From: Bacteroidales bacterium
Lineage (GTDB): Bacteria; Bacteroidota; Bacteroidia; Bacteroidales; FEN-979
Reading direction: 5' to 3'
Assembly (NCBI GenBank): GCA_016783905.1
Contig: JADHVQ010000003.1
Coordinates: forward strand, 1-63,568
DNA: 63,568 nt
Positions 741 to 55,531 of this stretch are shown here, piece by piece. Below the pieces are notes generated by a model, which was not told where the DNA came from, searched no databases, and saw only the letters and a list, made by a program, of their open reading frames with translations. Each line of letters starts with the position of its first letter. The first letter of the stretch is position 1. Position numbers and translations under genes: made by a program.

Positions 741-781
741 CTTCGTGTATCTTCGTGCCTCCTTCGTGTCACTTCGTGTAA
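741..781. repeat. Four copies of CTTCGTG at 10-11 nt spacing
   Basis: cttcgtgtat cttcgtgcctc cttcgtgtca cttcgtgtaa read directly. Confidence 0.85.
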
Positions 782-787
782 CAACTG

Positions 788-795
788 TACCTTTG
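788..795 (+). promoter_or_regulatory. Bacteroidota sigma-70 -7 box (TAnnTTTG)
   Basis: TACCTTTG about 24 nt upstream of ATG 819. Matching boxes precede many other genes: + strand 3428, 12976, 19019, 21999, 23566, 38682, 41692, 43759, 45236, 53799, 60876; - strand near 7790, 18955, 38590, 48925, 50940, 55540, 60870. Confidence 0.65.
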
Positions 796-818
796 CAATA
801 CCCAATAACCGACGACGG

Positions 819-1355
819 ATGACGAATGATCTTTTAACCGGCAAAAAATTGAAACTCCGTGCGGTGGAGCCATCTGACATTGATCTTCTTCTCGAGTGTG
901 AGAACAACACATCCATCTGGAAAGTAAGTAATACCGTCACCCCCTATTCAAGGTTTGAGTTGGAGGAGTATGTCCTGAATGCCAAACGGGATATCTTTTC
1001 TGCCCGGCAACTGAGGCTGATGATTGACCGTATTGATGGCGTGGATCCTCCGGTAACCATCGGGACCATTGACCTGTACGATTTCGACCCGGTGCATCTC
1101 CGGGCAGGGATTGGAATCATGATCGCCGAAGAGTTCCGGGAACAGGGTCATGCAGCGGAAGCCCTGAAGATCCTGATCCGGTATGCAGTGGATAGTCTTC
1201 TCCTGCATCAGCTGTTCTGCCATATCTCATCTGATAACCAAATAAGCATCAGGCTTTTTGAAAGCCTCGGATTCATCCGTTGCGGGGAGAAAAAAGAGTG
1301 GCTCAATATTGGCGATGGGTGGATGGATGAATATATGTACCAACTGATTCTGTAA
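819..1355 (+). CDS. GNAT (RimJ/SpeG-like) N-acetyltransferase
   Basis: LRAVEPSD start, GIMIAEEFREQGHA acetyl-CoA loop, NQISIRLFESLGF motif. Confidence 0.85.
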   Translation: MTNDLLTGKKLKLRAVEPSDIDLLLECENNTSIWKVSNTVTPYSRFELEEYVLNAKRDIFSARQLRLMIDRIDGVDPPVTIGTIDLYDFDPVHLRAGIGIMIAEEFREQGHAAEALKILIRYAVDSLLLHQLFCHISSDNQISIRLFESLGFIRCGEKKEWLNIGDGWMDEYMYQLIL

Positions 1356-1360
1356 CACCC

Positions 1361-2404
1361 ATGCGCCTCTTTTTTCGAATTACCGTCCTGCGCATCATTC
1401 CTTTCCTTGTCCTGGCAACTCTGCTTGTGGGAACGGAGCGGCTCTATTTCCGGATCCATACGTCTGTAATCGATCTGGGAGATGCCGATCATGCATGGTT
1501 AACTATTCCTACCGGGGCAGGTTTCAACCAGGTAAAAGACAGCTTGTATTATCATGGTTACGTCAATAAAAAGAAATTCATTGAGAACTACGTTGAACTG
1601 GGGAAGTACGACCACTATTTCAAGCCTGGGCGATACAGGCTTCGGAACAAGATGAGTGCACAGGAACTGGTGGATATGCTGATCAGGGGACTCCAAACCC
1701 CGGTGAAGGTTTCATTTCATAATATCCGGAACAAAGAGGAGCTTGCGGGAAGGATTGCCCGTCAGATCGAAGCTGATAGCCTGAGCCTGTTGAAGGCGCT
1801 TTCTGATGACACATTCCTGTCTCAATACGAGGTAACTGTCCTGACTCTATTCACCATGACCATCCCCAACACCTATGAGATGTGGTGGAATTCCACGGCA
1901 GAAGACTTCATGGCACGAATGGCAACGGAATCCGGGAAGTTCTGGAAAGGGGCAAGAACGCAGCAAGCCGATTCTATCGGGCTGAGCATTCCGGAAGTGG
2001 TAACACTTGCCTCCATCATTGAGAAGGAGACCGCAATGAATGATGAAAAGCCCCTGATTGCCGGAGTTTACATCAACCGGCTTCAAAAAAAATGGCCCCT
2101 TCAGGCCGATCCCACACTGATCTTTGCATGGGATGATTTCACAATCAACCGGGTTCTGAACAAACACAAAGAGATAAATTCTCCCTATAACACCTATAAA
2201 AACATAGGGCTTCCTCCGGGTCCAATCTGTATTCCGTCCATCGCTTCGATCGATGCAGTCCTCAACTACCGGGATCATGGATATATGTACTTTTGTGCCA
2301 GGGATGATTTCTCTGGATACCATGTCTTCTCCACCTCATTAAATGAGCACAACAGGAATGCACGAAGGTACCAGCAAGTATTTTCGAGAAGAGAGAGGAA
2401 ATAG
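1361..2404 (+). CDS. mltG: Endolytic transglycosylase MltG (YceG family)
   Basis: LASIIEKET, NRLQKKWPLQADPT, SPYNTYKNIGLPPGPI, YMYF motifs; N-terminal TM segment. Confidence 0.93.
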   Translation: MRLFFRITVLRIIPFLVLATLLVGTERLYFRIHTSVIDLGDADHAWLTIPTGAGFNQVKDSLYYHGYVNKKKFIENYVELGKYDHYFKPGRYRLRNKMSAQELVDMLIRGLQTPVKVSFHNIRNKEELAGRIARQIEADSLSLLKALSDDTFLSQYEVTVLTLFTMTIPNTYEMWWNSTAEDFMARMATESGKFWKGARTQQADSIGLSIPEVVTLASIIEKETAMNDEKPLIAGVYINRLQKKWPLQADPTLIFAWDDFTINRVLNKHKEINSPYNTYKNIGLPPGPICIPSIASIDAVLNYRDHGYMYFCARDDFSGYHVFSTSLNEHNRNARRYQQVFSRRERK

Positions 2405-2416
2405 GTTTGACAAGAC

Positions 2417-2456
2417 AACTGGATGACTGGATGACTGGATGATTAGATGATTAGAA
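2417..2456. repeat. Degenerate octamer tandem array (GACTGGAT/GATTAGAT x5)
   Basis: aactggat gactggat gactggat gattagat gattagaa, directly after the mltG stop. Confidence 0.85.
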
Positions 2457-3403
2457 GAAAAGACCAATCAATTCAAAGTAGTATTCATGGTCGATTGACC
2501 TCTGTGCAACTCTATTTCTGGTTGCCAGTTTTGTTCATTTTCCTGATCTCCGGCTCCCCTGTTCAGGCTCAAAAACGGTCCTTTGAGCCAAATCCTCTCT
2601 ATCCCGACACACTCCACAAAGGCAGGCTCATCGGAGTTCTTTCTGCCCAGGGAGTCATCTATTTCGGATCCCTCACCGGGCTCTATTACCTCTGGTATAA
2701 GGATTACGCGCAAAGCAACTTTCACTTTTTCAATGATAACAACGAATGGCTCCAGATGGACAAAATGGGGCATGTTTTCTCCTCCTACTACCTCAGCCGT
2801 GTCATGTATACATCCTACAGATGGGCCGGAGTGGAACGCAAAAAAGCGATACTTTTCGGAAGCTTGCTCACTTATGCATTCATGCTTAACATTGAAATCC
2901 TGGACGGGTTCTCGGCAGAGTGGGGCTTCTCATGGGGGGATCTCGCTGCCAATACGGCCGGTTGCCTTCTTTTTGTGGGACAGCAGTTTGGCTGGGATGA
3001 ACAGCGCTTCTTGCTCAAATACTCTTATCACCCGAGTAAATATCCGCAATACAATCCTGACCTGCTTGGAAGGAACCTGATCCAGAACCTGGTGAAGGAT
3101 TACAACGGAATGTCGTTCTGGCTCTCGGGAAATATCCACTCATTCCTGCCCAAACACTCAAAATTTCCCAAATGGTTAAATGTGGCCGTGGGATATGGGG
3201 CCGAAGGTTTAGGTGTAAACAACCAGGAGTTCGACAGGTACCGGAAATTCTTCCTGTCCCTGGATGTGGATCTCACCAGGATCCCAACCAGGTCAAAAGC
3301 ATTAAAAGGAATCTTCACCATCCTCAATTTGATTAAGATTCCCTTTCCGGCACTTGAATACGATACAAAAGGTCAGTTTAAATTTCATGCCATCTATTTC
3401 TGA
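2447..3403 (+). CDS. DUF2279/YfiM-like protein (start uncertain because the ATG lies in the repeat)
   Basis: FHFFNDNNEWLQMDKMGH, EILDGFSAEWGFSWGDLAAN, KDYNG and LSLDVDLTRI motifs. Confidence 0.8.
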   Translation: MIRRKDQSIQSSIHGRLTSVQLYFWLPVLFIFLISGSPVQAQKRSFEPNPLYPDTLHKGRLIGVLSAQGVIYFGSLTGLYYLWYKDYAQSNFHFFNDNNEWLQMDKMGHVFSSYYLSRVMYTSYRWAGVERKKAILFGSLLTYAFMLNIEILDGFSAEWGFSWGDLAANTAGCLLFVGQQFGWDEQRFLLKYSYHPSKYPQYNPDLLGRNLIQNLVKDYNGMSFWLSGNIHSFLPKHSKFPKWLNVAVGYGAEGLGVNNQEFDRYRKFFLSLDVDLTRIPTRSKALKGIFTILNLIKIPFPALEYDTKGQFKFHAIYF

Positions 3404-3460
3404 GGAGATTGAAAAAATCCCTACCTTTACCTTTGCGTTTTACTAATTAATCCGGCAATC

Positions 3461-3826
3461 ATGGAAGAACAAAATGCACATGCCACTCCCGACCAGGATA
3501 ACATGTTCTCACAACCAGCACAACAACATCTTCCCAACTCAACAGCGGTCCTGGTCCTGGGGATTTTGTCCATTGTATTCAGCATCTGGTATGTTTCAAT
3601 CCTGGGTGTGATCCTCAGTATTGTGGCCCTGGTTCTTTCCTCAAAGGACATGAGCCTCTATGCCTCCAACAGCTCAAAGTATACCCTTAGCTCTTTTAAC
3701 AATCTGAAAGCGGGAAGGATCTGTGCGATCATCGGCCTTACTGTGGCGATCATCTTTTTCGTGATCATTATGCTCATCATTTTCGGAATTCTTGCCACCA
3801 TGCCCTTCTGGGGAATGATCGATTAG
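3461..3826 (+). CDS. Small two-TM membrane protein (DUF4190/CCC-motif-like)
   Basis: LPNSTAVLVLGILSI and NLKAGRICAIIG patterns; -7 box at 3428. Confidence 0.75.
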   Translation: MEEQNAHATPDQDNMFSQPAQQHLPNSTAVLVLGILSIVFSIWYVSILGVILSIVALVLSSKDMSLYASNSSKYTLSSFNNLKAGRICAIIGLTVAIIFFVIIMLIIFGILATMPFWGMID

Positions 3827-3828
3827 CC

Positions 3829-5340
3829 ATGAAAATACTCCCTGTTGACAAGATCCGGGAAGCAGACGCGTACACCATTGAACACGAGCCGATTACAGAC
3901 ATCGACCTGATGGAACGGGCTGCCGGCAAATGTTTTGACTGGCTGTACCAGCACATACCCTCCACCCGCTCCATTACGGTATTCGCCGGAACAGGAAATA
4001 ATGGTGGAGATGGGTTGGCCATCGCCCGGATGCTTGCCCAGAAGGAGTATGAAGTAGAGGTATTTCTGGCAGGTAAAAAGGAGCAACTCTCCCCTAGTTG
4101 CCGGATCAATTACGAGCGACTACCCCACCCCTTAATCCCCTCCCCATTAAGGGAGGGGAAATTGGAAATGAATTTCTCCCCAAATGACGTAGTGATTGAC
4201 GCTTTGTTCGGTAGTGGCTTAATCCGCCCGGTCACCGGATTCCACGCTGATCTGATCCGGGCCATCAACGAAACAAAAGCCATGGTGGTAGCGATCGATG
4301 TACCCTCCGGTCTCTTTATAGATGAAACGGTAACAGGTGAAAAAGAGCCGGTCGTCATTAGGGCCGATTACACCCTCACCTTTGCCCCGCCAAAACTCGC
4401 CCTCTTTTTCCCGGAAAATGACCTCTATATCGGAGAGTGGGTTCTGCTCGACATCGGACTTTCCGACGAGTATCTGAAACAGGCGGAGGTGAAAAATTTT
4501 ACGATTACCGCCGCCAGTGTCAAACCACTTTTACGCAAACGCAATAAATTCGCTCACAAAGGAAACTTTGGCCACGCCCTGCTGATCTGTGGCGGAAAAG
4601 GGAAGATGGGGGCGGCCGTGCTGGCGGCAAAAGCCTGCCTGCATTCGGGCCCCGGACTGGTCACGGTGAAGGTTCCCCGTTCGGGAGTGGAGATCCTGCA
4701 AACGGCAGTCCCGGAAGCCATGCTTGCGATCGACCCGGATGAAGCGTGTTACTCTGAACTTCCCAAACTGGAAGGATACACAGCCATTGGGATCGGTCCG
4801 GGTATCGGTCTGGAAAAATCCACAGGGGATGCTTTCAAACATCTGATTCAGGAAGGAATCCCGATGGTCATCGATGCCGATGCCATCAATATCCTGGGTG
4901 AAAATAAAACCTGGCTCAGCTTTCTTCCGCCAGGCAGCATCCTTACACCACACCCCAAAGAGTTTGAACGGATAGCAGGCAAAACATCCGACGATTTCGA
5001 ACGGAACCAGGTGCAACGGGAGCTCTCATTCAAATACTCCTGTTACATCGTATTGAAAGGAGCCTACACCGCCATCACGACACCCGACGGGAAGTGCTTT
5101 TTCAACACCACCGGAAATCCCGGCATGGCTACCGGAGGAAGTGGCGATGTGCTGACCGGAATGATTACCGGATTGGTTGCCCAGCACTACCTTCCGTTGG
5201 AAGCCTGTTTGCTGGGTGTTTACCTGCATGGACTGGCCGGTGACCTGGCTGCGGAAATCACCGGCCAGGAGGCATTGACCGCCGGAAAGATTATCAACCA
5301 CCTCGGAAACGCATTTTTATCGCTTTATGGAGAATTATGA
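3829..5340 (+). CDS. nnr: Bifunctional NAD(P)HX epimerase/dehydratase
   Basis: GTGNNGGDG, DALFGSG, AIDVPSG (YjeF_N); HKGNFG, GPGIG, VIDADA, LTPHPKEF, GGSGDVLTG (carbohydrate kinase domain). Confidence 0.95.
   Translation: MKILPVDKIREADAYTIEHEPITDIDLMERAAGKCFDWLYQHIPSTRSITVFAGTGNNGGDGLAIARMLAQKEYEVEVFLAGKKEQLSPSCRINYERLPHPLIPSPLREGKLEMNFSPNDVVIDALFGSGLIRPVTGFHADLIRAINETKAMVVAIDVPSGLFIDETVTGEKEPVVIRADYTLTFAPPKLALFFPENDLYIGEWVLLDIGLSDEYLKQAEVKNFTITAASVKPLLRKRNKFAHKGNFGHALLICGGKGKMGAAVLAAKACLHSGPGLVTVKVPRSGVEILQTAVPEAMLAIDPDEACYSELPKLEGYTAIGIGPGIGLEKSTGDAFKHLIQEGIPMVIDADAINILGENKTWLSFLPPGSILTPHPKEFERIAGKTSDDFERNQVQRELSFKYSCYIVLKGAYTAITTPDGKCFFNTTGNPGMATGGSGDVLTGMITGLVAQHYLPLEACLLGVYLHGLAGDLAAEITGQEALTAGKIINHLGNAFLSLYGEL
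4122..4159. repeat. G/C-rich REP-like hairpin inside nnr
   Basis: TCCCCTCCC-cattaa-GGGAGGGGA (9-bp stem, 4136-4159) preceded by ACCCCACCCC; translated in frame as PHPLIPSPLREG. Confidence 0.65.
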
Positions 5341-5908
5341 AGAAGAAGCGCTGGAACAACTTGTTCTGGCACCTTACATACAAAAAAGCACCGCGCTTCG
5401 CGGAAAGTTCAGGTATGTGGGAGGGAATCAGTTCCGCCACGCCTTCGGAACCTTCGCTATCCTCCTGGATTATCATTACATCGACCCGGTCCTGCTGAAA
5501 GCCTCCATGATTCATGATGTGTTTGAGGATGTAAAATATGTATCCAAAGAGGAGATCATAAGCCTCGATGAGGATGGGCCCAAAGTATTTGACCTGGTCA
5601 TGGAGGTTACCCGAAAAAAAAACGAGTCCAAAACTGCGTTCCTCGAACGTATTCTGAAAGAGGGATCCACCCATGCCAAGGTTCTCAAGTGTGCCGACCG
5701 TATCAGCAACCTTACTGACCTGCATTCGGATACCTTCGATAAAGAGTTTATTAAAAAATACATCGAAGAGACGAAGGGATTTGTTCTCCCCATGGCAAAG
5801 GAGGTCAACCAGCATATGCTGTTCGAACTGAAGGATCTCATAAAAAAACGGGAAGCGAGCTTGAGGCTTTCAACCCATTTCTGGCCGCTGCACAGGAAAG
5901 AGGATTAA
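5327..5908 (+). CDS. Stand-alone HD-domain hydrolase, Mesh1/small alarmone hydrolase-like
   Basis: QFRH...[10 protein letters not shown]...VMEVT...[11 protein letters not shown] matches the RelA/SpoT HD signature; no synthetase domain. Confidence 0.8.
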
Positions 5909-7761
5909 TTCAATTGCGGATTTAGCAGGAGGTCATTCTCCATCCGGAGATTATCAATGATGAAGCCCTGACGCTGAGGCGTATTTTTCCCCATGTAAAA
6001 GGCGAGTACCTCCTGGATAGAAGAATCTTTGGAAAGCAGGACCGGATCGAGACGGATGTTGTTTCCGATGAAATGGCTGAACTCATCCGGAGAGATCTCT
6101 CCTAATCCTTTGAACCTGGTGATCTCCGGATTCCCACCCAGCGTTTCAATAGCCTGCTGTTTCTCTTCCCCGGAATAACAATAAAAGGTCTTCTGTTTAT
6201 TCCGGACGCGGAACAGCGGGGTTTGAAGGATATACAGATGGCCGTTACGCACCAGGTCGGGATAGAACTGCAGGAAAAAAGTGAGCAGTAACAGTCGGAT
6301 ATGCATCCCGTCAACATCAGCATCCGTGGCAATTACCACATGGTTGTAACGGAGGTTCTCCAGGCCCTCTTCCAGGTTCAACGCAGCCTGCAGCAAATTG
6401 AACTCATCGTTCTCATAAACCACCCGTTTGCTGAGTCCGTAAACATTGAGCGGTTTACCTTTCAATGAAAATACCGCCTGGGTGTTGACATCCCTTGCTT
6501 TGGTGATGGATCCGCTGGCGGAATCCCCCTCGGTGATGAAGATGGTCGTCTCAAACTTCCGGTCGTCGTGATTGTTATAATGAATGCGGCAGTCGCGAAG
6601 TTTTTTATTGTGAAGGCTGACCTTTTTCACACTATCTTTGGCGATCTTTTTGATATTTGCCAGCTCTTTACGCTCCCTCTCGCTCTGCAGGATCTTCTTC
6701 AGCAACGATTCGGCCGTTTCGGAGTTGATGTGAAGATAATTATCGAGATGCCGCTTCACGATATCCATGATGTAATTCCGGATGGTCTGTCCATCGGGTT
6801 CAATCAGCTGTGAACCCAGTTTGGTCTTGGTCTGAGATTCAAACACGGGATCCTGCACCTTGATGCTGATCGATGCCAGCAGGGAAGCTTTGATATCATT
6901 GGTGTCAAAATCCTTTTTGTAAAACTCGCGGATCGTCTTCACCAGGGCTTCCCGGAAGACGGACTGATGAGTCCCTCCCTGGGTGGTATGCTGTCCGTTT
7001 ACAAAAGAGTAGTACTCCTCCCCGTACATTTCGCAATGGGTAAAGGCAAACTCAAAATCCCCCTCTTTCACATGAATAATTGGATAGAGGATATTGGAAT
7101 CGATGTTGCTCTTCAGCAGGTCGAGCAAGCCGTTGGAGGAGTGAAATTTCTCACCATTGAAAATGATGGTCAGCCCATTATTGAGGTAGGCATAATTCCA
7201 GAGCATCTTGGTGATGTACTCCGGGATGAAGTGGATATTTCCAAACAGCTCGTCATCCGGTGTAAAGGTTACGATGGTGCCGTTCCGGAGTTCGCATTCC
7301 TTCTCATCCTCCTCATTCAGCACAATCCCTTTCTGAAACTCCACGATCTTTGTCCTGCCGTCACGGATTGACTGGACCTTGAAGTAGTTCGTGAGTGCAT
7401 TGACCGCTTTGGCTCCTACCCCATTGAGTCCTACCGCTTTCTTAAAAACCTTGGAATCGTATTTAGCGCCGGTGTTGATTTTTGATACACATTCCACCAC
7501 CTTCCCGAGCGGCATACCCCGTCCATAATCACGCACACAAACCTGCTGATCGTGAATGGTCACTTCGATCGTCTTTCCAAATCCCATCACAAACTCATCC
7601 ACAGAGTTGTCCAGGATCTCCTTGATCAGCACATAGATGCCGTCATCGGGAGAAGCACCATCACCCAGCTTCCCGATATACATCCCCGGACGCATACGAA
7701 TATGCTGCTTCCAGTCGAGCGATCGAATGGTATCTTCTGTATAATTATCTGGCTGAAACAT
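5905..7761 (-). CDS. parE: DNA topoisomerase IV subunit B
   Basis: [47 protein letters not shown]; about 620 aa with no GyrB insertion; a -7 box near 7790 supports start 7761. Confidence 0.9.
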
Positions 7762-7851
7762 CCTGTTTTTCCTTTCTGCGGTGCAAATATAACAGAAACG
7801 ACCTGCCATGAAGTATAGCCGGTAAAAGAGTTTTCAAAAAGTTGTACACAG

Positions 7852-9141
7852 CTATTCTGGCTTCTGACTTCTGGCTTCCGGGGAGATTCCCTGCCTTACC
7901 TCCTGTATCAGTAGCTTGATCTCCTCCTTCCTGATCAGGAAATCCCTGGCTTTGACTCCCGATAATACGAAAAAGGCGATCAGCTGATAAATGGTGGCTG
8001 CAGTGTAAGAGCAGGAAGCGGCGATCCCAGCGCCGATGATTCCGTAAACAGGGATCAGCCAGAGGCTGAGGGCGATGGTGAAGATCAGACCGATTCCGGA
8101 CGCTATGGCGCTGTGCATCGGTTTCCCCATCCCAGCAAAAAAGGAGCTGAGGAGAATGGAAAAAGAGAGTGAAATGATCCCGACAGCCAGGCTGATGATT
8201 ACCGGTTTGATTCCACTGAATTCAGGTCCGAAAACGAACACAAAGAAACTGGCTGGCAACATCAGGATCAATCCTACGATCAGGGTGGAAACCAGCACTC
8301 CTACCTTGCTGAAAACGAGGGTTACCTTCACCGCATAATCCCATCTCTTTTCATTGCTGATCCTTGAAAGCTGTACCATGGAAATGCTGCGCGGGATGAT
8401 CCAGACTCCTTCCGAAAGCTGAACACCGGTAGAATATACGCCAAGTGCGGCTTTATTGATCATATGTTCGATAAAGTAATAACTCAGCCGGTAATTGAAG
8501 AGCTGGAAGATATTGGCTGTTTGCGCCCATGTGCCAAACGCAAGGATTTCACGGATAACCTGTTTCATACCGCTCAGCTCGCTACGCTTCAACCGGGTGG
8601 TGATCAATGCAAAACTGGGAAGAAACATGACGATATATGCAACATACATGGCGTATACATAGACCATTACCTCCCTGTTTGAGGTTAAAAGGTAAAACGC
8701 CATCAGGGTGGCGATCAGGGCGGTGAACTGAGCCACTGTGAGTACATTGATGGCCCTGATACGCTCCTGACCAAGAAGAATCATGGTGTTCACCGTAAAG
8801 AGGGAATGAAGCAAGGAAAGGATCATCACATGCAGAAAATAGCCTTCCGGAATGGAACCAGTGATATTAAGTACTCCGGCACAGACAACAGAGGCAATCA
8901 CTCCCCAAATGTAAGAGGGGATAAAAAGTTTTAACAGAGGGGTTCTGGGGACAAGATATACCAGCGCCGCACCGCCAATAAAGTTATTCACCATCTGGAC
9001 GATGGTGATGGCCAGAATGATCAGGCTGATTATTCCCACCTTTTCGGCACCAAGATACCGGGCATTCATTACCACAATAACCAGCATAAAGATGGCTACC
9101 AGAAACCTGGTAATGATGGTGCCTATTATTTTTTTAAACAT
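7852..9141 (-). CDS. Polysaccharide flippase (Wzx/MATE-like)
   Basis: About 12 hydrophobic segments, LGVYS and LIPVYGIIGAGIA motifs; start overlaps the glycosyltransferase stop. Confidence 0.8.
   Translation of the reverse strand: MFKKIIGTIITRFLVAIFMLVIVVMNARYLGAEKVGIISLIILAITIVQMVNNFIGGAALVYLVPRTPLLKLFIPSYIWGVIASVVCAGVLNITGSIPEGYFLHVMILSLLHSLFTVNTMILLGQERIRAINVLTVAQFTALIATLMAFYLLTSNREVMVYVYAMYVAYIVMFLPSFALITTRLKRSELSGMKQVIREILAFGTWAQTANIFQLFNYRLSYYFIEHMINKAALGVYSTGVQLSEGVWIIPRSISMVQLSRISNEKRWDYAVKVTLVFSKVGVLVSTLIVGLILMLPASFFVFVFGPEFSGIKPVIISLAVGIISLSFSILLSSFFAGMGKPMHSAIASGIGLIFTIALSLWLIPVYGIIGAGIAASCSYTAATIYQLIAFFVLSGVKARDFLIRKEEIKLLIQEVRQGISPEARSQKPE
7855..7882. repeat. Heptamer array TTCTG(G/A)C at the flippase 3' end
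   Basis: ttctggc ttctgac ttctggc ttccggg; encodes the tail PEARSQKPE. Confidence 0.7.
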
Positions 9142-10312
9142 TGCCCATGATTTGGGTATAAATTGCTGAGAGTTGACTGCCCACCGATTGAGGCGAGTAC
9201 CGGTCCTGTACAGTAGCCCGGATAGCCTCCCGGTCAAAGGAACTGAACTGATCGAGCATGCGATCGATGGCCTCAACCAGCGCTTGTTTATCATTCACCG
9301 GGACCAAAATTCCATTGCGGTCAGTAATCACTTCGGGAGCAATTCCTACCGCCGTGGAGACGACCGGAGCGCCGCAGGCCAGGCTCTCGATCAGTACGGT
9401 GCCAAAGGTCTCATACCGGCTCGATAGTACCGTAAAATCAACCTGTTCATAAAGTCCTGTAAGATCTTTCTGTGCTTTCAGTCCTACAAAGAACACAGTT
9501 TTTCCCATTAGATCGAGATCTACAGCCACCTGCTGTATCCGCTCCAGGTCGGGCCCCTCACCTGCCAGCAGACACCGGAAATCTGACCTTCGTTTCAACA
9601 GCTCAGCAATCGCTTCAAACAATCCGCTGATATTCTTGGCCCGGTCATCGAAACAGGAAACATGTAAGAACTGTTTCCGGGAACCATGTCTCTGCTGATG
9701 CTTATCAATCCGAAGGGGAGATGTAACCACATTGGGAACCACAAAATAATGCAGGTTAGATAGATGACAAGCAATCATCGCATGCTTCAGCGCCTCAGAA
9801 ACTGCTATCATGGCCGCCGCCTTCCCAACCACATACCGGGTAACCGGTTTCCTGAGCCATCCCCGGTAAGTGCCATTCTCCTGAAAATATCTTGACCAGT
9901 GCTCAGAGATCACATGAGGAACCCGGTACCGGCGACTCATAAGGTGTCCGATCAAAGCTGTCCGGGTAAGAATATGTGAGTGTATGACATCAGGAATAAA
10001 ATCACCAACAACTTCTAACCCTCTCTGGTGAGCCCGGTAGAAGCTTGAAAGGTTCAACGCCTGGTAGATCCCGGGAAGGACTGTCTCTGGAATCTTGTAA
10101 TAGACCCGGACAGCCGTCACACCGTTTTCCTCTGCAAAATCGATCTCAAATTCACTCGGGCAATGTGGATCAGGATGAACATAGAGCACCACCACATGAT
10201 GCCAGGTGGTAAGCGCCTCAGCCTGCCGCTGGATAAACAATCCCGGCATCGGATCATACCGGTGAGGATACCAGCGAGGCAAGAAGAGAATATTCAGGGG
10301 AGAGGCGGACAT
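9134..10312 (-). CDS. Glycosyltransferase family 4
   Basis: SRYETFGTVLIESLACGAPVVST (E-x7-E), ISEHWS, DVIHSH. Confidence 0.9.
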   Translation of the reverse strand: MSASPLNILFLPRWYPHRYDPMPGLFIQRQAEALTTWHHVVVLYVHPDPHCPSEFEIDFAEENGVTAVRVYYKIPETVLPGIYQALNLSSFYRAHQRGLEVVGDFIPDVIHSHILTRTALIGHLMSRRYRVPHVISEHWSRYFQENGTYRGWLRKPVTRYVVGKAAAMIAVSEALKHAMIACHLSNLHYFVVPNVVTSPLRIDKHQQRHGSRKQFLHVSCFDDRAKNISGLFEAIAELLKRRSDFRCLLAGEGPDLERIQQVAVDLDLMGKTVFFVGLKAQKDLTGLYEQVDFTVLSSRYETFGTVLIESLACGAPVVSTAVGIAPEVITDRNGILVPVNDKQALVEAIDRMLDQFSSFDREAIRATVQDRYSPQSVGSQLSAIYTQIMGNV

Positions 10313-10319
10313 GAAGCGA

Positions 10320-10416
10320 AATTACTAATTACTAATTACGAATGACGAATGACGAATTGAGAGCAAAGTATCGCGTATCGTGTATCACGTATCGCGCATC
10401 CGGCATCCGGCATCAA
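10320..10416. repeat. Two abutting heptamer arrays (AAT(T/G)AC(T/G)-like x6; G(T/C)ATCnn x7)
   Basis: aattact aattact aattacg aatgacg aatgacg aattgag ... gtatcgc gtatcgt gtatcac gtatcgc gcatccg gcatccg gcatcaa; fills almost the whole intergenic gap. Confidence 0.85.
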
Positions 10417-10420
10417 ATCA

Positions 10421-10954
10421 CTATGTAAAACATGCGTCAACGAATTTTATTGCATTCCTCAACCGCTCTTCCCCCAGGCCGGAAACAACACGGAAGTTCC
10501 AGCCACGTTCCAGCATCTCGTCGTAATAGAGGTTAAAGAGCTGTTCCCGCATGTGCGGATGCTCCCGTTGCGGATCCTCCTCCCAGGGTGTATCGATGTA
10601 GCAAAGGAGGTAAAGATCATAGGAATGGGCATCCAGTTGTTGCAGGATCCAGGCATCACACCGGCTGAATTTCACCTCACTCCAGATCTTGGTGACCAGA
10701 AACTCGGTGTCGCAAAATAAGTACGGTCTCCTCTCCTTCTTTTTTTCAAGGAGAGCCTCCCCCTCCTTTTCTCTTATCAGCTGCCCTTTCGCAATCGTCA
10801 AAATATCGTGTTCCGCATAAGGCCGGTCCAACTGGTCGATGTACTCCCGTGCATATTCAGGCACCCAAACCGTTTTGTAATGGCTGGCCAGCTGTTCCGC
10901 GAGCATCGATTTTCCGGTAGATTCCGGTCCCGTTATTGCGATTCGATTCAGCAT
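10421..10954 (-). CDS. NadR-like ribosylnicotinamide kinase / AAA_28 ATPase
   Basis: ITGPESTGKS, VPEYAREY, FCDT, PWEEDPQRE; adjacent to pnuC. Confidence 0.85.
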   Translation of the reverse strand: MLNRIAITGPESTGKSMLAEQLASHYKTVWVPEYAREYIDQLDRPYAEHDILTIAKGQLIREKEGEALLEKKKERRPYLFCDTEFLVTKIWSEVKFSRCDAWILQQLDAHSYDLYLLCYIDTPWEEDPQREHPHMREQLFNLYYDEMLERGWNFRVVSGLGEERLRNAIKFVDACFT

Positions 10955-10957
10955 TAT

Positions 10958-11686
10958 CTATCTTCCGGCCTGTTCACTATTCACCTCCTTCGTCCTTCGT
11001 CTTTCGTCCTTCGTCCTTCGTCCTTCGTCCTTCGTCCTTCGTCCCTCGATCTTCCTTCTCCATTCAATAAACCCAAAAATAGCAATTACTGTAAACACCA
11101 GGAACTGGAAGGAGCTGAAGTAAAGGTTGAGCCAGGCAAACATCCCGATAGAGATTATATCACCGATGATCCAGAGAATCCAGTGCTCGATCTTTTTCTG
11201 TGCCAGCAACCACATGGCAACAATATAAATGGCTGTGGTCACTGCATCCCAGGCTGGTATCTCACTATCTGTAAACTGAACCAGAAGAAATCTGAGGCTA
11301 AAGAAGAAACCCAGGATGATCAGGGCATAGATCAGTAGGCCCCGTATCGAAAGACGGGTTACCCTGATCCGCTCATCCTGTTCATTTTTCCTCAACCAGT
11401 TGTACCAGCCATAAGCGCTCATGACCGCATAGAACACGTTGATCCCTGCATAGGCATATAACCTGGAATGGAAGCAGATATAGACGTAAATCGAAACATT
11501 GATGATGCCTAGAGGGTATACAAGAATATTCTCCTTCTTCATGAACCATACACTGGCAAGACCGCATAGAACAGCCACGATCTCCAGGATGGTAGTTTGA
11601 GTTCCCAGGATGACAAACGGATCGGTCAGCACGAAACGAAAGTTATTAACATCACGGGGCAAAGATATTTTAAAATGACGGAGCAT
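10958..11686 (-). CDS. pnuC: Nicotinamide riboside transporter PnuC (start uncertain)
   Basis: YGWYNW, WDAVTT, QKKIEHWILWIIGD, GFIEW motifs; the C-tail is encoded by a heptamer repeat. Confidence 0.88.
   Translation of the reverse strand: MLRHFKISLPRDVNNFRFVLTDPFVILGTQTTILEIVAVLCGLASVWFMKKENILVYPLGIINVSIYVYICFHSRLYAYAGINVFYAVMSAYGWYNWLRKNEQDERIRVTRLSIRGLLIYALIILGFFFSLRFLLVQFTDSEIPAWDAVTTAIYIVAMWLLAQKKIEHWILWIIGDIISIGMFAWLNLYFSSFQFLVFTVIAIFGFIEWRRKIEGRRTKDEGRRTKDERRRTKEVNSEQAGR
10991..11046. repeat. Heptamer tandem array (CGTCCTT)x8
   Basis: Eight near-perfect units, with variants cgtcttt and cgtccct. Confidence 0.95.
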
Positions 11687-45159: not shown

Positions 45160-45262
45160 ATCATTCGTAAATCCAAAATCGAATCAATCGGAGATCCCTT
45201 ACGCGCAACCTATTTCAATTTCGCAAAACAAATCATATCTTTGTTAATGTGAATCCTTCCCA

Positions 45263-48200
45263 GTGAAAACAAAGATCATCATCGTGTTGATTTTGATCTC
45301 ACCTCTGGTGACTTTATCCCAGGGGGAATTCAATATTTGGTATTTCGGAAATAAAGCCGGCCTGGATTTTAATACTGTTCCGCCAACTCCCCTTCATAAT
45401 AGTGCTATGTGGATCGCTGCTACTGCAACTGTGAGCATCTCAGATTCACTGGGGAACTTATTGTTTTATTCAAATGGTGCAATGGTTTGGAATAGAAATC
45501 ACCAAGTTATGCCAAATGGAAACGGCTTAGTGTTTGGAATGAACTATTCGCAACCGGTATATGCCGTGAAATCTATTGGGGAAGATAGTATTAATTATTT
45601 GTTTTGTTTACAAGAACCGGAATTTCCGACCTATGAGGTTGGACTTTTTTATTCGGTCATTGATATGTGTCTCGACGGAGGCTTCGGCGATGTTGTCATT
45701 GGAATGAAAAACCTGCCAGTGACCGGAGCAGAAGAAGCAAGGGATAAGCTTCACGGTACCAGGCATAATAATAACCGGGATGCCTGGATTGTCACAAAGA
45801 ATTATGATACATGGGATTTTGCAGCTTATCTTATTACATCAACTGGTATAAGCAACTCACCGGTATTAAGTTCAAGCATTGTTCATGACATAAATGCAGA
45901 ACGGTCAGGCGAAATGAAAATATCACAGGATGGCAATAAATTGTGCGCAACATATAGAACTAACGTTCCAAATTATCCAGGGTACACAATAGCAGAGTTT
46001 TGTGATTTTGATAAAACAACTGGTATCATTTCCCCATTATTTAGATTTAAGCCAGTATTTGATACTATTGTCTGGCACGCAAATTATACCGAATTTTCAC
46101 CGGATTCAAAATTGCTATATATTATAGCCGAAAGCGGTTACTACCCAATAATGGGTTGTTTTCAATATTATGCCTCGAAAACAGATTCGACCGAGTTTAT
46201 GCAAAGCCAAACAGTCATAAGTTATTCTTATGGAGCAGTGACTCGTGGTTTACAAATAGCACCCGATGGAAAAATATACGGATGCAAACCGTTTATTGAT
46301 TCACTCAGTGTCATTAATAATCCCAACATTCAAGGAATTGGGTGTAATTTCCAGTTAAATGGGATAAGTCTTGATGGAAGAATTAGTTATGAAGGTCTTC
46401 CCCAATTCCTCCAAAAAATATAAAGCATACATTCATCACACAGGTTTTTGCCAGAATGATTCCTTTTATTTCTCGTCCGATATCTGGCCGCCTCCAGACA
46501 GCATCCACTGGGATTTCGGGGATCCTGCATCCGGCGCTGCAAACTATTCCAACGACACCGCACCATCGCATATTTACACACTCCCTGGACAATACACGGT
46601 TGAACTGTTTGTCCGGCATATCGATAACCGGACCGATACCTCCTGGGTAACGATCATTATTCATGAAACGCCGGCTCCGGAATTAGGTAATGATACCACC
46701 ATCTGCCAGGGAGATTCGGTTACATTTGATGCTGGTTTCTGTTCAGGTTGTACTTATGCATGGACAAGCATTCCTCCTGGTTTTTTTTCCACCACTCAAA
46801 TGGTTACCCTCGGTCAGACTGGGATATATGAAGTTAGCATAACATCACCGAATGGTTGTATAGGCAGAGACTCCGTTCAATTGACAGTCACGGTTCCACC
46901 AGTAATAACAAATACCCCTCTTTCAAAGTCAATTTGTTCCGGGGAATCCACAGACATTCCATTAGCTTCCAATGTTCCGGCTACAACCTTTGCCTGGACA
47001 GCCATGGGCTCTTCGCTATTTGTTTCCGGCTTTGCCCCAGGCGCAGGTGATACAATAGACCAGATGCTAATAAACACCGGATCAGGAGATGAAACTGTGA
47101 CCTATACCATCACTCCTGCTGTGGGTGGCTGTGTGGGTGATTCGGTTCAATACGTGGTAACGGTCAACCCGGTAGACACTATTTTGGTTATAATTTCTTC
47201 TGAGGATCTACTCCCGCTTATCAATGGAAAGTCAACGGAATGGATGAAGGGACAAATGACTCTGTTTTTGCTTATATACCCAGTAATGGAGACACTATAA
47301 CCTGTGTACTTACTTCCTCTGATTCTATCTGTACTACCAATAATCCGGCAACCTCGAACGCAATCATTATGACAGTATATCCCGATTTACTCGTCGGTAT
47401 TTCTATCACACCTTCGGGTAATCCTGTCTGTGAAGGAATGCCGGTAACTTTCACGGTAACACCCACTAATGGAGGCAGTTCCCCAACATACCAATGGCAA
47501 GTCAATACAATCAATGCAGGAATGAACAATGCAGAATTTACATATACCCCGATAAATGGGGATATTGTGAGTTGTATGCTCACATCTTCCGAACTATGTA
47601 CATCCAACAATCCGGCATCCAGCAATCCAGTCATCATGATCGTCGTGGAAACCCCTGAAGTGACTTTCACCCCTTGTTTCGATACCATCACCACACTCAA
47701 CGCCAAACCTTTTAAGCTCAAAGGAGGAATCCCCCTGGGAGGAACCTATACCGGTCCGGGAGTGGATCAGATCACCGCTTATTTCAATCCGGCCATGGCG
47801 GGTATTGGCACCCATCAGGTCACATACAGTTATACCAATTTTGCCTTCTGTTCCGGCTCAGAAAACAGAAGCATCCAGGTTTTCCCCTCATCCCTCATGG
47901 CTTGTGGCTCATGGCTCGTCGATATTCGGGACAGTACGACATATCTGACAGTTCAACTAGGCTCCCAATGCTGGATGGCAGCGAACCTGAACTACGGCAC
48001 TGAAATCCCACATACGACCCCCCAACGCGATAACTGCCTCCCCGAAAAATATTCTCGTCCTTCGTCCCTCATCCCTCTTCCTTCGTTCTATCAGTGGGAC
48101 GAACTCATGTGTTACCAGGATGCTGAAGAACTCCAAGGCCTCTGGCCCACCCGGCTGGCATATACCTTCCGAAGCCGACTGGAACACACTGTTCTCCAAC

Positions 48201-48452
48201 TGGATCAACAACGCCTTTGCCGGGGCGCCGTTGAAATATTCGGGATATTCCGGATTCAACGCGTTTCTGAATGGGGCAGCGTTTTTTAATAAGGTTTGGG
48301 AGTATGATGCATTCGCCACCTTCTTCTGGTCCTCTACCTCACACGGGCCGTTTAAAGCATGGGCACACGGAATAAACGAGTACAACTATTCGGTGTCTTA
48401 TTATCCGAGTTATCGGGCGAATGCGTTTGCGGTGAGGTGTATGCGGGATTGA
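45263..48452 (+). pseudogene. Large secreted protein (beta-propeller-like N-terminus, PKD, Ig-like repeats, C-terminal FISUMP/Fib_succ_major domain) broken into four ORFs
   Basis: NIWYFGNKAGLDF start; WDFGDP..HIY..PGQYTV (PKD); two GGS.P.YQW.VN repeats; TVQLGSQCWMAANLN, YQWDE, GWHIPS, FWSST, AVRC. Breaks at about 46415 (+1 A), 47200 (deletion) and 48143 (+1 G). Confidence 0.8.
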
Positions 48453-48456
48453 TTCA

Positions 48457-48651
48457 TTACGCCACCTCATATTCAAATTTCATGGGCTGGGGTATCTTTT
48501 TGGATGCATTAAGTACTTCAATCCCGATGATAGATCCGTCTTTATCATAATCCAAAATAATTCCCGGCTTACCCTCATCACTTTCTTTAACCTCAGCTTC
48601 AGAAAAAGAAATGAAAAGGACATCTACTGACTTGTCATATTTTATTTTCAT
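48457..48651 (-). CDS. DUF2283 family small protein (putative antitoxin)
   Basis: MKIKYDKSVDVLFI...IILDYDKDGSIIGIEVLNASK. Confidence 0.85.
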   Translation of the reverse strand: MKIKYDKSVDVLFISFSEAEVKESDEGKPGIILDYDKDGSIIGIEVLNASKKIPQPMKFEYEVA

Positions 48652-48892
48652 GGTACTTTGTTATTTTCGATGTTCTATAAACGGTAATTACAAGAGGTGG
48701 CACTTTAAATATGTTGACAAATACCCGTATAAGATACTTCCCCTGATCTGATTCCTCTATTTTCTGATAAATCGTATAATTCTCTTCTGAAATTCTCTGA
48801 TCCGGAAAATCAATAACTTTTTTCACAACCTCTTCTGAAATCCCTCTACGGGACATTTGGTCTAACGCATGTTGTGATAGAGAGAATTCCAT
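48635..48892 (-). CDS. DUF4258 family protein (putative RelE-like toxin)
   Basis: LSQHALDQMSRRGIS...LIRVFV...VITVYRTSKITKY; overlaps DUF2283; own -7 box near 48925. Confidence 0.8.
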   Translation of the reverse strand: MEFSLSQHALDQMSRRGISEEVVKKVIDFPDQRISEENYTIYQKIEESDQGKYLIRVFVNIFKVPPLVITVYRTSKITKYHENKI

Positions 48893-48960
48893 TCTAAATT
48901 TTTATTCCCGACTTTTTTACAAAGATAAGGAATAATGAGGAACGGAATGTTGGGGCAAGC

Positions 48961-49011
48961 TTTCCAAGTTGCCGGGCAAATGCGTTTTCGGTGAGGTGTT
49001 TACGTGATTGA
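48961..49011 (+). repeat. Orphan second copy of the FISUMP gene 3' end
   Basis: Encodes FPSCRANAFSVRCLRD*, versus YPSYRANAFAVRCMRD* at 48402-48452; 42/51 nt identical by manual alignment. Confidence 0.85.
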
Positions 49012-49040
49012 GTAACGAAAATTTCGCTATTTAATTATGG

Positions 49041-49141
49041 AACGCGGATATTCGCGGATTTCACTGGGAAGGAATTTGTACTTCTAAGTTCTACGTTCTA
49101 CCTTCCAGTTTGCATTTCTTACTTCTGACTTCTGGCTTCTC
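49041..49141. repeat. CGCGGAT-core repeat followed by nnTTCT(A/G) heptamer arrays
   Basis: aacgcggat attcgcggat; acttcta agttcta cgttcta ccttcca; atttctt acttctg acttctg gcttctc, up to the rho stop. Confidence 0.78.
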
Positions 49142-49143
49142 TT

Positions 49144-52848: not shown

Positions 52849-53597
52849 AAAAAGAAAATTTCATATTTGGATTACGCCCCGTTATCGAAGCCATCAAATC
52901 GGGCAAAGAGTTGGACCGGATTTTGCTCCAGAAAAACCTCCGCGGAGAATCCTTTCGCGAACTCTTCAACCTGATCCGCGAGCTTGAGATCCCTTTTCAA
53001 TTTGTTCCTTTGGAGAAGCTGAACCGCCTCTCCAAACAAAACCATCAGGGAGTGATAGCCTGGGTCACTGACATCAGCTACCAGAAGATCGAAGATATCC
53101 TTCCTCTCTTGTATGAGGATGGCAGGGTGCCTCTCATACTCCTCCTGGAAGGCATCACCGATGTCAGAAATATGGGAGCCATCGCCCGTACGGCGGAATG
53201 TGCCGGAGTGGATGCCATCGTGATTCCTCTCAAGGGTTCGGCCATGATCAACTCAGAAGCAATCAAAACATCAGCCGGAGCACTTTACAAAGTTCCGGTT
53301 TGCCGGACATCCAAACTAAAAGAGACTATCACCCTGATGAAAGAGAGCGGATTACAGGTGGTAGCAGCCACAGAGAAAGGAAGCAGAGACTATACGTCAG
53401 CCGATTTTATCAGCCCGCTCGTCCTCATAATGGGATCCGAGGGAACCGGCATTTCCAACGAGCTACTGAACCTGTGTGATGAACGCATCAGAATCCCACT
53501 TGCCGGAGAAATCGAATCCCTTAATGTCTCTGTGGCAGCAGGAATTCTCCTTTTTGAGATCATACGGCAGAGAAACAACACACATGTACATCGTTAA
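52845..53597 (+). CDS. rlmB: 23S rRNA Gm2251 methyltransferase RlmB
   Basis: NHQG, DVRNMGAIART, MGSEGTG, ESLNVSVAAG. Confidence 0.92.
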   Translation: MKKENFIFGLRPVIEAIKSGKELDRILLQKNLRGESFRELFNLIRELEIPFQFVPLEKLNRLSKQNHQGVIAWVTDISYQKIEDILPLLYEDGRVPLILLLEGITDVRNMGAIARTAECAGVDAIVIPLKGSAMINSEAIKTSAGALYKVPVCRTSKLKETITLMKESGLQVVAATEKGSRDYTSADFISPLVLIMGSEGTGISNELLNLCDERIRIPLAGEIESLNVSVAAGILLFEIIRQRNNTHVHR

Positions 53598-53787
53598 AAT
53601 ACAAGGAACGACAAAGATTCCTGATTTCATTCAGATCAGGGATGACGATTTTACCCTGATCGCTTACTTCAGGATCAACAATCCAAGGCGGGCATTGAAC
53701 CGGTGCCGGTTGATCGACAAACAAGAGGAGATTATAAACCTGGCTAAAAAATTACCTTATGGGAAAATTCAAAAGCTGGAACTGTGA
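53584..53787 (+). CDS. Small conserved hypothetical protein (67 aa)
   Basis: MYIVKIQGTTKIPDFIQIRDDDFTLIAYFR; ATG overlaps the end of rlmB. Confidence 0.65.
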   Translation: MYIVKIQGTTKIPDFIQIRDDDFTLIAYFRINNPRRALNRCRLIDKQEEIINLAKKLPYGKIQKLEL

Positions 53788-53826
53788 CCTTTGTTATCTA
53801 CATTTGTAAAAAAAAATTCCTTCAAC

Positions 53827-54501
53827 ATGCCCGGAGATTTAATTATTATCCTGGATAAAGTGTCTGTCTATCAGAATGAAAACCTGATCCTGGCCAATGT
53901 TTCGCTGACCGTTAGCCGGGGCGAGTTCGTTTACCTGATCGGTCGGACCGGAACAGGGAAAAGCAGTCTGCTGAAGACCCTCTATGCCGAATTGCCCATC
54001 CGTATTGGCACCGCCGGGGTGGCGGGCTATGATTTGAGAAAAGTGCGCAGGCATGAGGTCCCGTATCTTCGGCGGAAGCTGGGTATTGTATTTCAGGATT
54101 TCCAGTTGCTGATGGATCGCACAATCAATGAAAACCTGCTGTTTGTCATGCGCGCTACCGGATGGAAAGACAACATCCTGATGACCAAACGTCTCCAGGA
54201 AGTGCTGGCAAAAGTAGGCCTGCAAACCAAAGGGAACAAGATGCCTCATCAGCTATCCGGGGGTGAGCAGCAACGTGTCGCCATCGCCCGGGCGCTTGTC
54301 AACGACCCGGAGATCATTTTGGCCGATGAACCTACCGGGAATCTCGATCCCGAAAGCTCCGAAGGAATCATCAGCCTCCTGATGGATATCTCCAAGACGG
54401 GGCGGGCCGTTTTGATGGCCACACACAATTACGCGATGTTTGAAAAATATCCGGCCCGAACCCTGAAATGTGAATTTGGGAAGGTGATCCCCGTGAACTA
54501 A
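53827..54501 (+). CDS. FtsE-like ABC ATP-binding protein
   Basis: [43 protein letters not shown]. Confidence 0.85.
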
Positions 54502-55499
54502 TCTCCCAGGGTGGCAACCATTACAGCCTTGATGGTATGTAACCGGTTTTCAGCTTCATCAAAAACAATGGAAGCGGGGGATTCAAATACCTCCTCACTG
54601 ACCTCCAGGCCATCAAGATTGTATGTTGTGAAAATCTCATACCCCACTTCGGTATCTTTGTTATGAAATGAGGGGAGGCAATGCATAAATTTCACCTTCG
54701 GATTGCCCGTTTTTTCCATCATGGCTTTGTTTACCTGGAAAGGCAGCATCTCTTTAATTCGTTCTTCCCACAACTCTTTCGCCTCGCCCATGGATAACCA
54801 AACGTCGGCATAGACAAAATCCACACCTTTCACCGCTTCATCGATATCCTCGGAAAGCGTAATCTTTGCACCCGTCTCTTTCGCCATAACACGGCAACGA
54901 TCTACAAGCTCTTCTTCCGGCCAGTATTTTTTAGGAGCAAACGCCCGGAAGTCCATCCCCATCTTGGCGGCGCCAACCATCAACGAATTCCCCATGTTAT
55001 TCCGTGCATCCCCGCAATAAACAAAAGAGATGTGGCGCAGCGGTTTATCCGAATGCTCCATCATGGTCAGAAAATCAGCCAGGATCTGGGTGGGATGGAA
55101 TTCATTGGTAAGCCCGTTCCATACCGGCACCCCCGCATATTTACCCAGCTCTTCCACGATCTCCTGTCCGAATCCACGGTACTCAATGCCATCGTACATC
55201 CGTCCCAATACCCTGGCTGTATCCTTCATGGTCTCTTTTTTACCGATATGTGAACCCTCCGGGCCAAGGTAGGTAACCTGTGCACCCTGGTCGTAAGCAG
55301 CTGCCTCAAACGCACATCGTGTCCGGGTGGAAGCCTTCTCAAAAATCAAAGCAATGTTCTTTCCTTTCAGCCTTTGGTGCTCTGTTCCTGCATATTTTGC
55401 TTTTTTCAGATCCCAGGAGAGATCAAGTAAAAATTTAATCTCCTGCGGGGTAAAATCCAGTAACTTTAGAAAGTTGCGGTTTCTCAGATTAAATGACAT
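54498..55499 (-). CDS. argF: Ornithine carbamoyltransferase
   Basis: STRTR, HPTQ, WLSMG, HCLP, AENR. Confidence 0.95.
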
Positions 55500-55510
55500 A
55501 CATTTTCAAA

Positions 55511-55531
55511 TTACGATTTACGATTTACGAA
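55511..55531. repeat. Heptamer array (TTACGAT)x3 in the argF leader
   Basis: ttacgat ttacgat ttacgaa; reverse complement of the 18024 array family. Confidence 0.75.

Follow-up and report, generated by a model that had tools for sequence, protein, structure and literature searches.

Degenerate 7- to 10-nt tandem arrays in an uncultured Bacteroidales genome belong to the arm families of small gene cassettes that may spread during natural competence

Heptamer repeats are over-represented in many bacteria and have been called unexplained (PMC4692102, PMC4679880; here and below, citations refer to excerpts of the papers concerned). The described examples, namely GGGAATC of Xanthomonas and the Nostoc repeats (PMC4692102), TAACTGA of Beggiatoaceae and Bacteroidetes (PMC4679880) and the paired four-unit 7/8-mer sites of Geobacter metallireducens (PMC2700814), have a period of 7–8 nt, about four units, a G-rich strand after stop codons, inverted pairs and some intragenic copies, and are treated there as G-quadruplexes, regulator binding sites or unexplained. 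Two gene-bearing systems are also close. The S23p intervening sequence in the 23S rRNA gene of Coxiella burnetii encodes a four-helix-bundle protein, has terminal inverted repeats and heptamers adjacent to its open reading frame (ORF), and bears signs of horizontal transfer and ORF decay (PMC4990558). In REPIN-RAYT systems (repetitive extragenic palindromic, or REP, doublets with a REP-associated tyrosine transposase), a repeat-flanked gene-bearing element coexists with many dispersed gene-less copies and singlet remnants, which insert into or beside older copies (PMC3116915). We here analysed a stretch of 63,568 nt from an uncultured Bacteroidales bacterium (contig JADHVQ010000003.1 of assembly GCA_016783905.1, referred to as the window), in which degenerate 7- to 10-nt tandem arrays recur. 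An earlier note on this DNA had described these arrays as located at gene junctions and interpreted them as landing pads or scars of single-gene cassettes, with abutting families marking empty sites. This interpretation is partly supported: the arrays of the window and of the genome belong to the arm families of cassettes that carry four-helix-bundle, GxxExxY or DUF559 genes.

The window is contig C55 of the genome under study (G000; 2.47 Mb, 89% complete), in which T9SS-type (type IX secretion system) and Bacteroidota-type families are among the genes identified, consistent with a member of the Bacteroidales. Genomes are labeled with G-numbers, contigs of G000 with C-numbers and compared loci with L-numbers, while a/b denotes the junction of neighbouring genes. 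Genes were called with our own hexamer caller, whose predicted starts run short. Tandem arrays were called with Tandem Repeats Finder (TRF) and, in parallel, with a self-written detector, using a 4th-order Markov genome as chance control. The genome-wide scan proposed earlier yielded 453 period-7 and 217 period-8 arrays with TRF against 2 and 7 in the Markov genome, and our detector returned 335 heptamer and 160 octamer arrays against 1 and 0. A few units recur 10–38 times across G000.

The cassettes are built from a G/purine-rich tandem arm, a gene of ~120 aa and the reverse-complement arm, spanning ~500 bp in total. G000 contains nine TIGR02436 (four-helix-bundle) genes, none of them in the window. 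Inspection by eye shows eight of them flanked on both sides by arrays in inverted orientation, each gene having a repeat unit of its own, whereas one gene is armless (C110:12858-13178) and possibly represents a domesticated copy; similar matches of 145–159 aa occur in most congeners. The intact cassette at C113:25916-26464 folds arm to arm (z=-4.7), and its protein matches 2GSC and 2RLD with five chains each. Congeners harbor 5–17 four-helix genes per genome, dispersed singly at varying sites, and also carry GxxExxY genes, whose arms are longer and degenerate, and DUF559 genes, whose arms are GC-rich palindromes. The cargo was assigned to TIGR02436, TIGR04256 or PF04480; neither an integrase nor a transposase gene was seen inside the cassettes, whose layout is arm-ORF-arm, in agreement with the earlier suggestion of a process that needs no local integrase. 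DUF559-type GC-rich CCCCT(A/G)AAGGGG palindromes are found at the same hot junctions as heptamer arrays (L002, L007, L010, L011 at pnuC/nadR, and C113 14/15 and 24/25).

The arrays share their units with these arms. Exact identity with a cassette arm unit of the genus was found for 16% of the 335 heptamer and 21% of the 160 octamer arrays (score of at least 12) versus 1.9% and 0.4% for shuffled units, and with one mismatch allowed the values are 55% versus 32% for heptamers and 47% versus 8% for octamers. The earlier note had mentioned similar arrays next to small mobile genes of the four-helix-bundle, GxxExxY and DUF559 families in other genomes, and a link of the arrays to these families is borne out here.

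Compared to the described systems, the cassettes show distinct features. Unlike the S23p sequence, those compared lie between protein genes in either orientation and not inside 23S or 16S rRNA genes, they include GxxExxY and DUF559 cargo and a competence-type motif, and their families are common to hundreds of gene-less arrays; a four-helix ORF between inverted repeats, as in S23p, is present elsewhere in the genome and absent from the window. In contrast to REPINs, the repeats are tandem 7–10-mers instead of palindromic REPs, the cargo is no transposase, there is no excess of doublets, the families found side by side number in the dozens, and many copies lie in frame in genes instead of being extragenic. 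The term 'four helix' was not found in the text of PMC4692102 or PMC4679880, supplements being outside the search. SPDIR (short-patch double illegitimate recombination) likewise replaces chromosomal sequence by short single-strand patches at microhomologies, resembling the in-frame substitutions described below, but it happens rarely, shows no sequence specificity and is kept down by DprA and RecA, whereas the patches here are specific repeat families with polarity. Miniature inverted-repeat transposable elements and insertion sequences have terminal inverted repeats in common with the cassettes but depend on a transposase-coding autonomous copy. As regards integrons, whose cassettes form an array beside an integron integrase, the cassettes here are dispersed singly, and the integrase-like gene of G000 that carries the motif (C40:433-1899, L172; a 488-aa integron-integrase-like recombinase) scores below the TIGR02249 cut-off (218 versus 265 bits). 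A retroelement of the Avd type, as in diversity-generating retroelements, would involve a reverse transcriptase, yet PF00078 was not found in G000 (at 89% completeness), G003, G006 or G010 (it was found in G011). S23p sequences, REPIN-RAYT systems and 7/8-mer repeats each fail at least one defining feature, and we file the system under none of them; by analogy, it would work most like an autonomous/non-autonomous repeat pair.

Contact with stop codons, reported earlier for most arrays, is apparent genome-wide: among 521 arrays examined, the number of purine-rich arrays, binned by the distance of their start from a stop, is 134 for the first 12 nt and 26, 9 and 11 for the next three 25-nt bins. 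Tandem junctions with two arrays show the order purine-rich then pyrimidine-rich 20 times and the reverse 0 times. A location at gene junctions holds for many arrays but not for 126 arrays that lie more than 120 nt inside 80 genes, all in frame and without strand bias (64 pyrimidine-rich, 62 purine-rich). Judging by their N-terminal sequences, several of these genes look like tRNA synthetases, polA, dnaX and aroA. A neighbour of a different family within 45 nt is present for 69 of 163 coding arrays, where ~1.5% would be expected, and for 287 of all 678 arrays. Abutting families have a fixed polarity: counted by G-C skew (G-rich left, C-rich right), the left-right to right-left ratio is 15:0 in genes and 32:4 at junctions, and counted by family it is 9:1 in genes and 35:0 at junctions. 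Two arrays that abut mostly belong to different families, one being a left and the other a right arm, and do not represent one empty cassette as had been suggested. Alignments of orthologues reveal one four-unit family swapped for another at the same length and phase in frame (C108_7, C97_9), an array in place of host codons, and one family inside another; four units is the modal array size, the shortest arrays being removed by the detection threshold. Since a whole stop-containing cassette cannot persist inside such genes, many of which appear essential, we infer that gene-less arms arrive on their own, adding at the centre of an older left-right pair, and the view of all arrays as whole-cassette scars does not hold for the in-frame copies.

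Junctions were compared between genomes in 548 pairs (254 distinct; 1.2 Mb of DNA), a non-random choice consisting mostly of cassette surroundings and the window, with filled and empty classes assigned by eye. About 19 G000 junctions are filled by a cassette in some congener, as one would expect of the proposed exchange. At these sites G000 shows a collapsed hairpin of the same family (C121 11/12, C98 9/10), arms of another family (C38 1/2, C97 9/10, C108 1/2, C113 9/10, C89 27/28, C89 30/31), a nested double hairpin (C1 5/6, C1:4570-4829, z=-5.6), an orphan motif with a small remnant (C112 7/8) or a clean junction (C1 2/3, C95 1/2, C40 9/10, C78 34/35); lone arms are also seen. In the opposite direction, the G000 cassette at C38 2/3 corresponds to a collapsed hairpin in G003 and G005 and to an empty GxxExxY-type hairpin in G001. 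Three arm families occupy C1 2/3 in three genomes, and the cargo at C10 5/6 is either four-helix or GxxExxY. The proteins of L106 and L103 are sisters in the tree and reside at different junctions with identical inner arms, L106 being nested in an older pair, and left and right arms are chimeric at C113 20/22 and C65 12/13. Among gene-free junctions, a congener carries an array at 37 of 43 that have one in G000 versus 12 of 151 that do not, and where arrays at gene-free junctions could be compared pairwise, 38 of 71 comparisons showed two different families. Together with the neighbour counts, this favors the landing-pad part of the earlier interpretation, in that arrays attract further arrays. 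Automated detection of nesting in cassette flanks gave few multi-family cases, so that nesting rests on by-eye examples and the polarity counts, and no target-site duplication was recognisable by eye in the filled/empty pairs, which are diverged.

The cassettes share a further feature that the earlier note missed. A motif initially spotted in their flanks, TATAACCTTTT-N9/10-(C/G)GATTAAT, occurs in G000 upstream of dprA, comM, comEC, comF, ssb, recA, topA, a DUF2851 gene, the integrase gene, an ORF6N gene, hicA, a RAYT-like gene and the gene of an extracytoplasmic function (ECF) sigma factor. It is fixed in distance before dprA, comM, comEC, comF, ssb and recA and lies ~550 nt before a UPF0102 (YraN-type) gene. 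In a Bacteroidota species, transformation strictly requires ComEC, DprA, ComF and RecA and is reduced in a YifB/ComM mutant (PMC8459023), and YraN acts with ComM (PMC13663708). A position weight matrix trained on 8 host sites only was applied at a threshold score of at least 14, which 15 of 1588 G000 genes reach, training genes included. By comparison, the threshold is reached by 55 of 92 four-helix genes of the genus and 14 of 30 from the remaining genera of its family, 11 of 15 GxxExxY genes and 5 of 13 DUF559 genes, although counts on genus genomes overstate independence, many rows being orthologous cassettes. Of 19 members of the family, 17 have the motif before dprA, compared to 0 of 9 non-members; it also stands before comM in 5 of 5 and, at a distance of 47–71 nt, before the ECF sigma gene of 20 among 28 relatives. 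As judged by eye, host variants are mirrored in the cassette motifs: TGACC in comM and cassettes of G023, TCACT in G021 and G022, and a terminal AAC in G013. Cassettes antisense to their upstream gene carry the motif in 22 of 27 cases versus 16 of 39 for co-oriented ones (p=0.002, with 22 unclear rows set aside), which would be expected if the motif were a promoter. In a quick four-helix tree (87 rows, 107 columns; rows below 70 aa and one duplicate dropped) the motif appears on both sides of the deepest split, requiring 15 changes of which at least 8 are forced by starred branches.

The ECF sigma gene of G000 is located at C68:1431-2062 (L174), with a possible anti-sigma gene directly 3'. The motif 5' of the sigma gene itself suggests autoregulation, and we regard its product as a candidate for the competence sigma factor of the family. 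The motif also precedes genes for a lamin-tail-domain protein (L179:228-2828), a T9SS-type secreted protein (L178:83-2545), a PorV/PorQ-family protein (L173:170-985), the DUF2851 protein (L171:5710-6192) and a nuclease-like protein (C99:12362-13480), candidates for unrecognised DNA-uptake components. In several genera (L186 in G011, L189 in G020, L193 in G022, L212 in G023) the stretch from the motif to the start of dprA contains repeat-like sequence, and hicA, a toxin-antitoxin gene, has two identical motif-bearing upstream regions, C120:12948 and C123:11, both at contig ends.

Since the arrays match cassette arms and the cassettes share an upstream motif with DNA-uptake genes, it is likely that the arrays spread during natural transformation. 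With a probability of roughly 0.55 we favor the reading that the arrays are arm families of small cassettes, which arise likely by decay of whole cassettes and by entry of gene-less arm copies into older arrays, predicted to take place during natural competence. According to this reading, the ECF sigma factor would recognise the motif as its promoter, so that expression of resident cassettes would coincide with plentiful single-stranded DNA, DprA and RecA. At conserved junctions, ordinary homologous recombination via the flanking genes would transfer whole cassettes, which would need no integrase and would explain chimeric arms. New sites and gene-less arms would result from short-homology-primed copying or patching off cassette ends into older arrays or breaks; because related arrays would be the best primers, each new arm would be placed at the centre of an old pair. 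Slippage may then alter the copy number, and the cargo protein may bind its own arms, nick, or resist removal by incoming empty alleles.

Several observations weigh against this reading. None of the 29 armed cassettes outside the family scores for the motif, so that the link may be lineage-specific, and a second motif common to dprA and extra-family cassettes was not evident by eye, with no de novo search made. Within the genus 37 of 92 cassettes are without the motif, and a search of up to 4 kb upstream turned one up for only 8 of these 37 rows; moreover, genomes of one genus are not independent and the four-helix tree is a quick one on 107 columns. Both the promoter role of the motif and the competence of the uncultured host are predictions from sequence. 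In Acinetobacter, short-patch illegitimate recombination is held down by DprA and RecA (10.1101/2023.11.22.568220), which speaks against a passive form of the patching, so that an active role of the cargo would be needed. Genome-wide, inverted array pairs within 2.5 kb are not enriched (16 versus 16.7 in permutations), and a stem scoring at least 12 is found in only 13 of 292 array-bearing junctions, most arrays being lone. Furthermore, seven of the 17 window arrays (740, 2418, 10396, 16620, 18022, 40419, 49082) match cassettes no better than column-permuted controls, and in six congeners, covered in part, no window junction is filled and the window-syntenic loci contain no four-helix match.

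It is unlikely that all arrays are merely the remains of whole junction-inserted cassettes whose gene was lost, with the competence motif captured incidentally, a model that comes close to the earlier interpretation. The collapsed same-family hairpins at junctions filled in congeners, the remnant at C112 7/8 and the varying sites of the 5–17 four-helix genes per genome are what such decay would leave behind, but it does not account for the in-frame arrays, often several families in a row with the same polarity, nor for equal-length family swaps in coding loops, nor for a motif that is shared by cargo of three unrelated families and varies along with the host's own version.

We consider it quite unlikely that gene-less hairpins replicate as REPINs do, moved in trans by the single-copy, motif-bearing RAYT-like HUH protein of G000 (C97:14834-15397, L177). 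This protein matches NF047646 with 53 bits (cut-off 80), close homologues of 74–95% identity, each with the motif, exist in 7 of 10 congeners, and REPINs likewise insert into or beside older REPINs and decay to singlets (PMC3116915). However, the query was not found in G003 (97% complete, with 17 four-helix genes), G002 and G001, only weak, partial NF047646 matches being present in G002 and G003; one enzyme would have to serve dozens of unrelated arm families, singlets dominate, and no single dedicated repeat family flanks the RAYT-like gene. The gene itself is 93–95% identical in four congeners, whereas nadR is only 70–77% identical there.

A role at the RNA level, in which RNase III would remove cassettes from mRNA as intervening sequences and lone arrays would be retained because they signal translation or termination, appears distinctly improbable. 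The protein family and heptamer repeats are those of the Coxiella 23S intervening sequence, which is excised by RNase III (PMC4990558), arrays begin at stops, and a regulatory role was proposed for the TAACTGA repeats (PMC4679880); yet families turn over or vanish at orthologous junctions, in-frame arrays lack a strand bias, and spread and motif are left unexplained. Independent origin of the arrays by local polymerase slippage and selection (slippage having been suggested as the source of heptamers by Mrazek et al. 2007, according to PMC4679880) would fit copy numbers of 2 to 25 but accounts for length change only and, in line with the earlier note, is largely refuted as an origin by the recurrence of units, their equality to cassette arm units far above chance and their stacking with fixed polarity, leaving a very small chance that it is correct.

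A bolder form of the favored reading, which we put forward only tentatively and hold to be rather doubtful, is that the cassettes are a new class of selfish element living off natural transformation: three unrelated small proteins would have captured the host competence sigma promoter, would protect or copy their own cassette during DNA uptake, and would write arm patches of about four units into breaks or older arrays, even in essential genes. If true, this class would account for the long-unexplained heptamer excess of bacteria, and TIGR02436, GxxExxY and DUF559 would gain a function. A 2025 review describes mobile elements mostly as antagonists of transformation (PMC12378983), and elements with the host's own competence promoter would pursue a strategy unlike antagonism. 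The process would also have added repeat-coded loops to dozens of proteins, and from the motif and sigma gene a competence regulon can be predicted for an uncultured family of the Bacteroidales. With arrays tied to armed cassettes, a named candidate sigma factor and a defined motif, the heptamer question and three common orphan families become simply testable. In the main texts of the open literature, subscription journals and supplements lying outside the search, no description of the cassette class or the motif was found.

The window contains the following arrays.

740–780, unstranded: 10-mer array of TCTTCGTGT type with right-arm polarity on the plus strand; its resemblance to GxxExxY arms is weak and not above control.
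2418–2455, unstranded: 8-mer array ACTGGATG 3' of the mltG stop; congeners have other families here.
7855–7878, unstranded: TTCTGAC/TTCTGGC array at the stop of a flippase-like gene, matching the four-helix cassette arms of L121 at a level reached by 0 of 12 controls.
10320–10414, minus strand: three-family stack at the nadR/GT4 junction, on the minus strand left GATGCCG, left GCGATAC and right TTCGTAA (TRF 10320-10358, 10368-10400, 10396-10414).
10986–11048, minus strand: (GAAGGAC)x9 in the final codons of pnuC, of the family of the intact four-helix cassette on C113.
16620–16654, minus strand: AATACGA array beginning at the VWA stop; the family varies between congeners.
18022–18066, minus strand: ATTTACG/AATTACG array that begins at the stop of tktN and extends in the direction of the VWA start, its family kept in congeners (TRF 18024-18064).
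31947–32061, plus strand: stack of left ATGAATGAC-type, left GACTGCG and right TCCCCACC (TRF 31947-31997, 32010-32037); the 32010 array matches the four-helix cassette arms of L081.
40419–40448, unstranded: 10-mer array GGATCATTCA at a convergent junction, missing in 2 congeners; cassette match not above control.
41637–41671, unstranded: 8-mer array CACCAACT, of the family that forms the arms of the four-helix cassette on C102.
45118–45200, plus strand: left end of a 4-kb insert, with a left arm of GxxExxY type (AACGCGGAT, like L138) and then a right arm of four-helix type (like L106) (TRF 45123-45142).
48054–48086, plus strand: CTCGTCC array, in frame in the FISUMP-type ORF 47240-48289.
49036–49140, plus strand: stack 5' of the rho stop with left CGCGGAT (GxxExxY type), right TTCTACG and right TTCTGAC (TRF 49082-49105, 49116-49140).
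55511–55530, minus strand: TCGTAAA right-arm array directly 5' of the ornithine carbamoyltransferase start.

The arrays and the recurrence of units at distant sites were thus correctly read before, except that only two CGCGGAT copies exist at 49041, without a TRF call. Contact with a stop or start codon does not extend to the arrays at 740 and 41637, which are tens of bases away from any codon, nor to the intragenic array at 48054, and the pnuC array lies within codons. Five arrays (7855, 32010, 41637, 48054, 55511) beat all 12 column-permuted controls for cassette match and the 49116 array beats 11, while the likeness of the 45118 and 49036 arrays to the left arm of the GxxExxY cassette L138 stands outside this comparison. 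Hairpin folding of four window clusters gave no significant result (z from -1.7 to +0.3), and the window holds no strong site of the competence-type motif.

Small cassette genes were looked for at the three junctions singled out earlier and found at none of them, nor elsewhere in the window-syntenic DNA of six congeners, which was covered in part. At GT4/nadR no inserted gene is present in 8 congeners, nor in one further, and the middle family of the stack (GCGATAC) is missing from most congeners; at tktN/VWA the sole addition is a further VWA-like gene, in G010. Comparison of window positions 1-20000 to contigs from four public runs revealed no inserted gene, a weak result as contigs drop rare variants, and one related population in them skips 10358-10398. 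At the pnuC end (10986–11048) at least 4 different element types exist among congeners. The family at 48054 occupies the identical spot in three G000 paralogues, with ~33 nt in place of ~42 nt of a congener paralogue. The mpl/rho junction is empty in G006 and G010, while G000 has a 4-kb insert (45134-49143) with GxxExxY-type left arms at both ends; it contains PKD/FISUMP-type ORFs, which look frameshifted, and a DUF4258-DUF2283 pair. Finally, a low-GC island (23667-31971; 34–43%) comprises a PLD-domain gene, a large methyltransferase gene with a PglX-like match below cut-off and an AAA_21 ATPase pair; it is likely a restriction or defence locus, and its right end overlaps the array stack at 31947.

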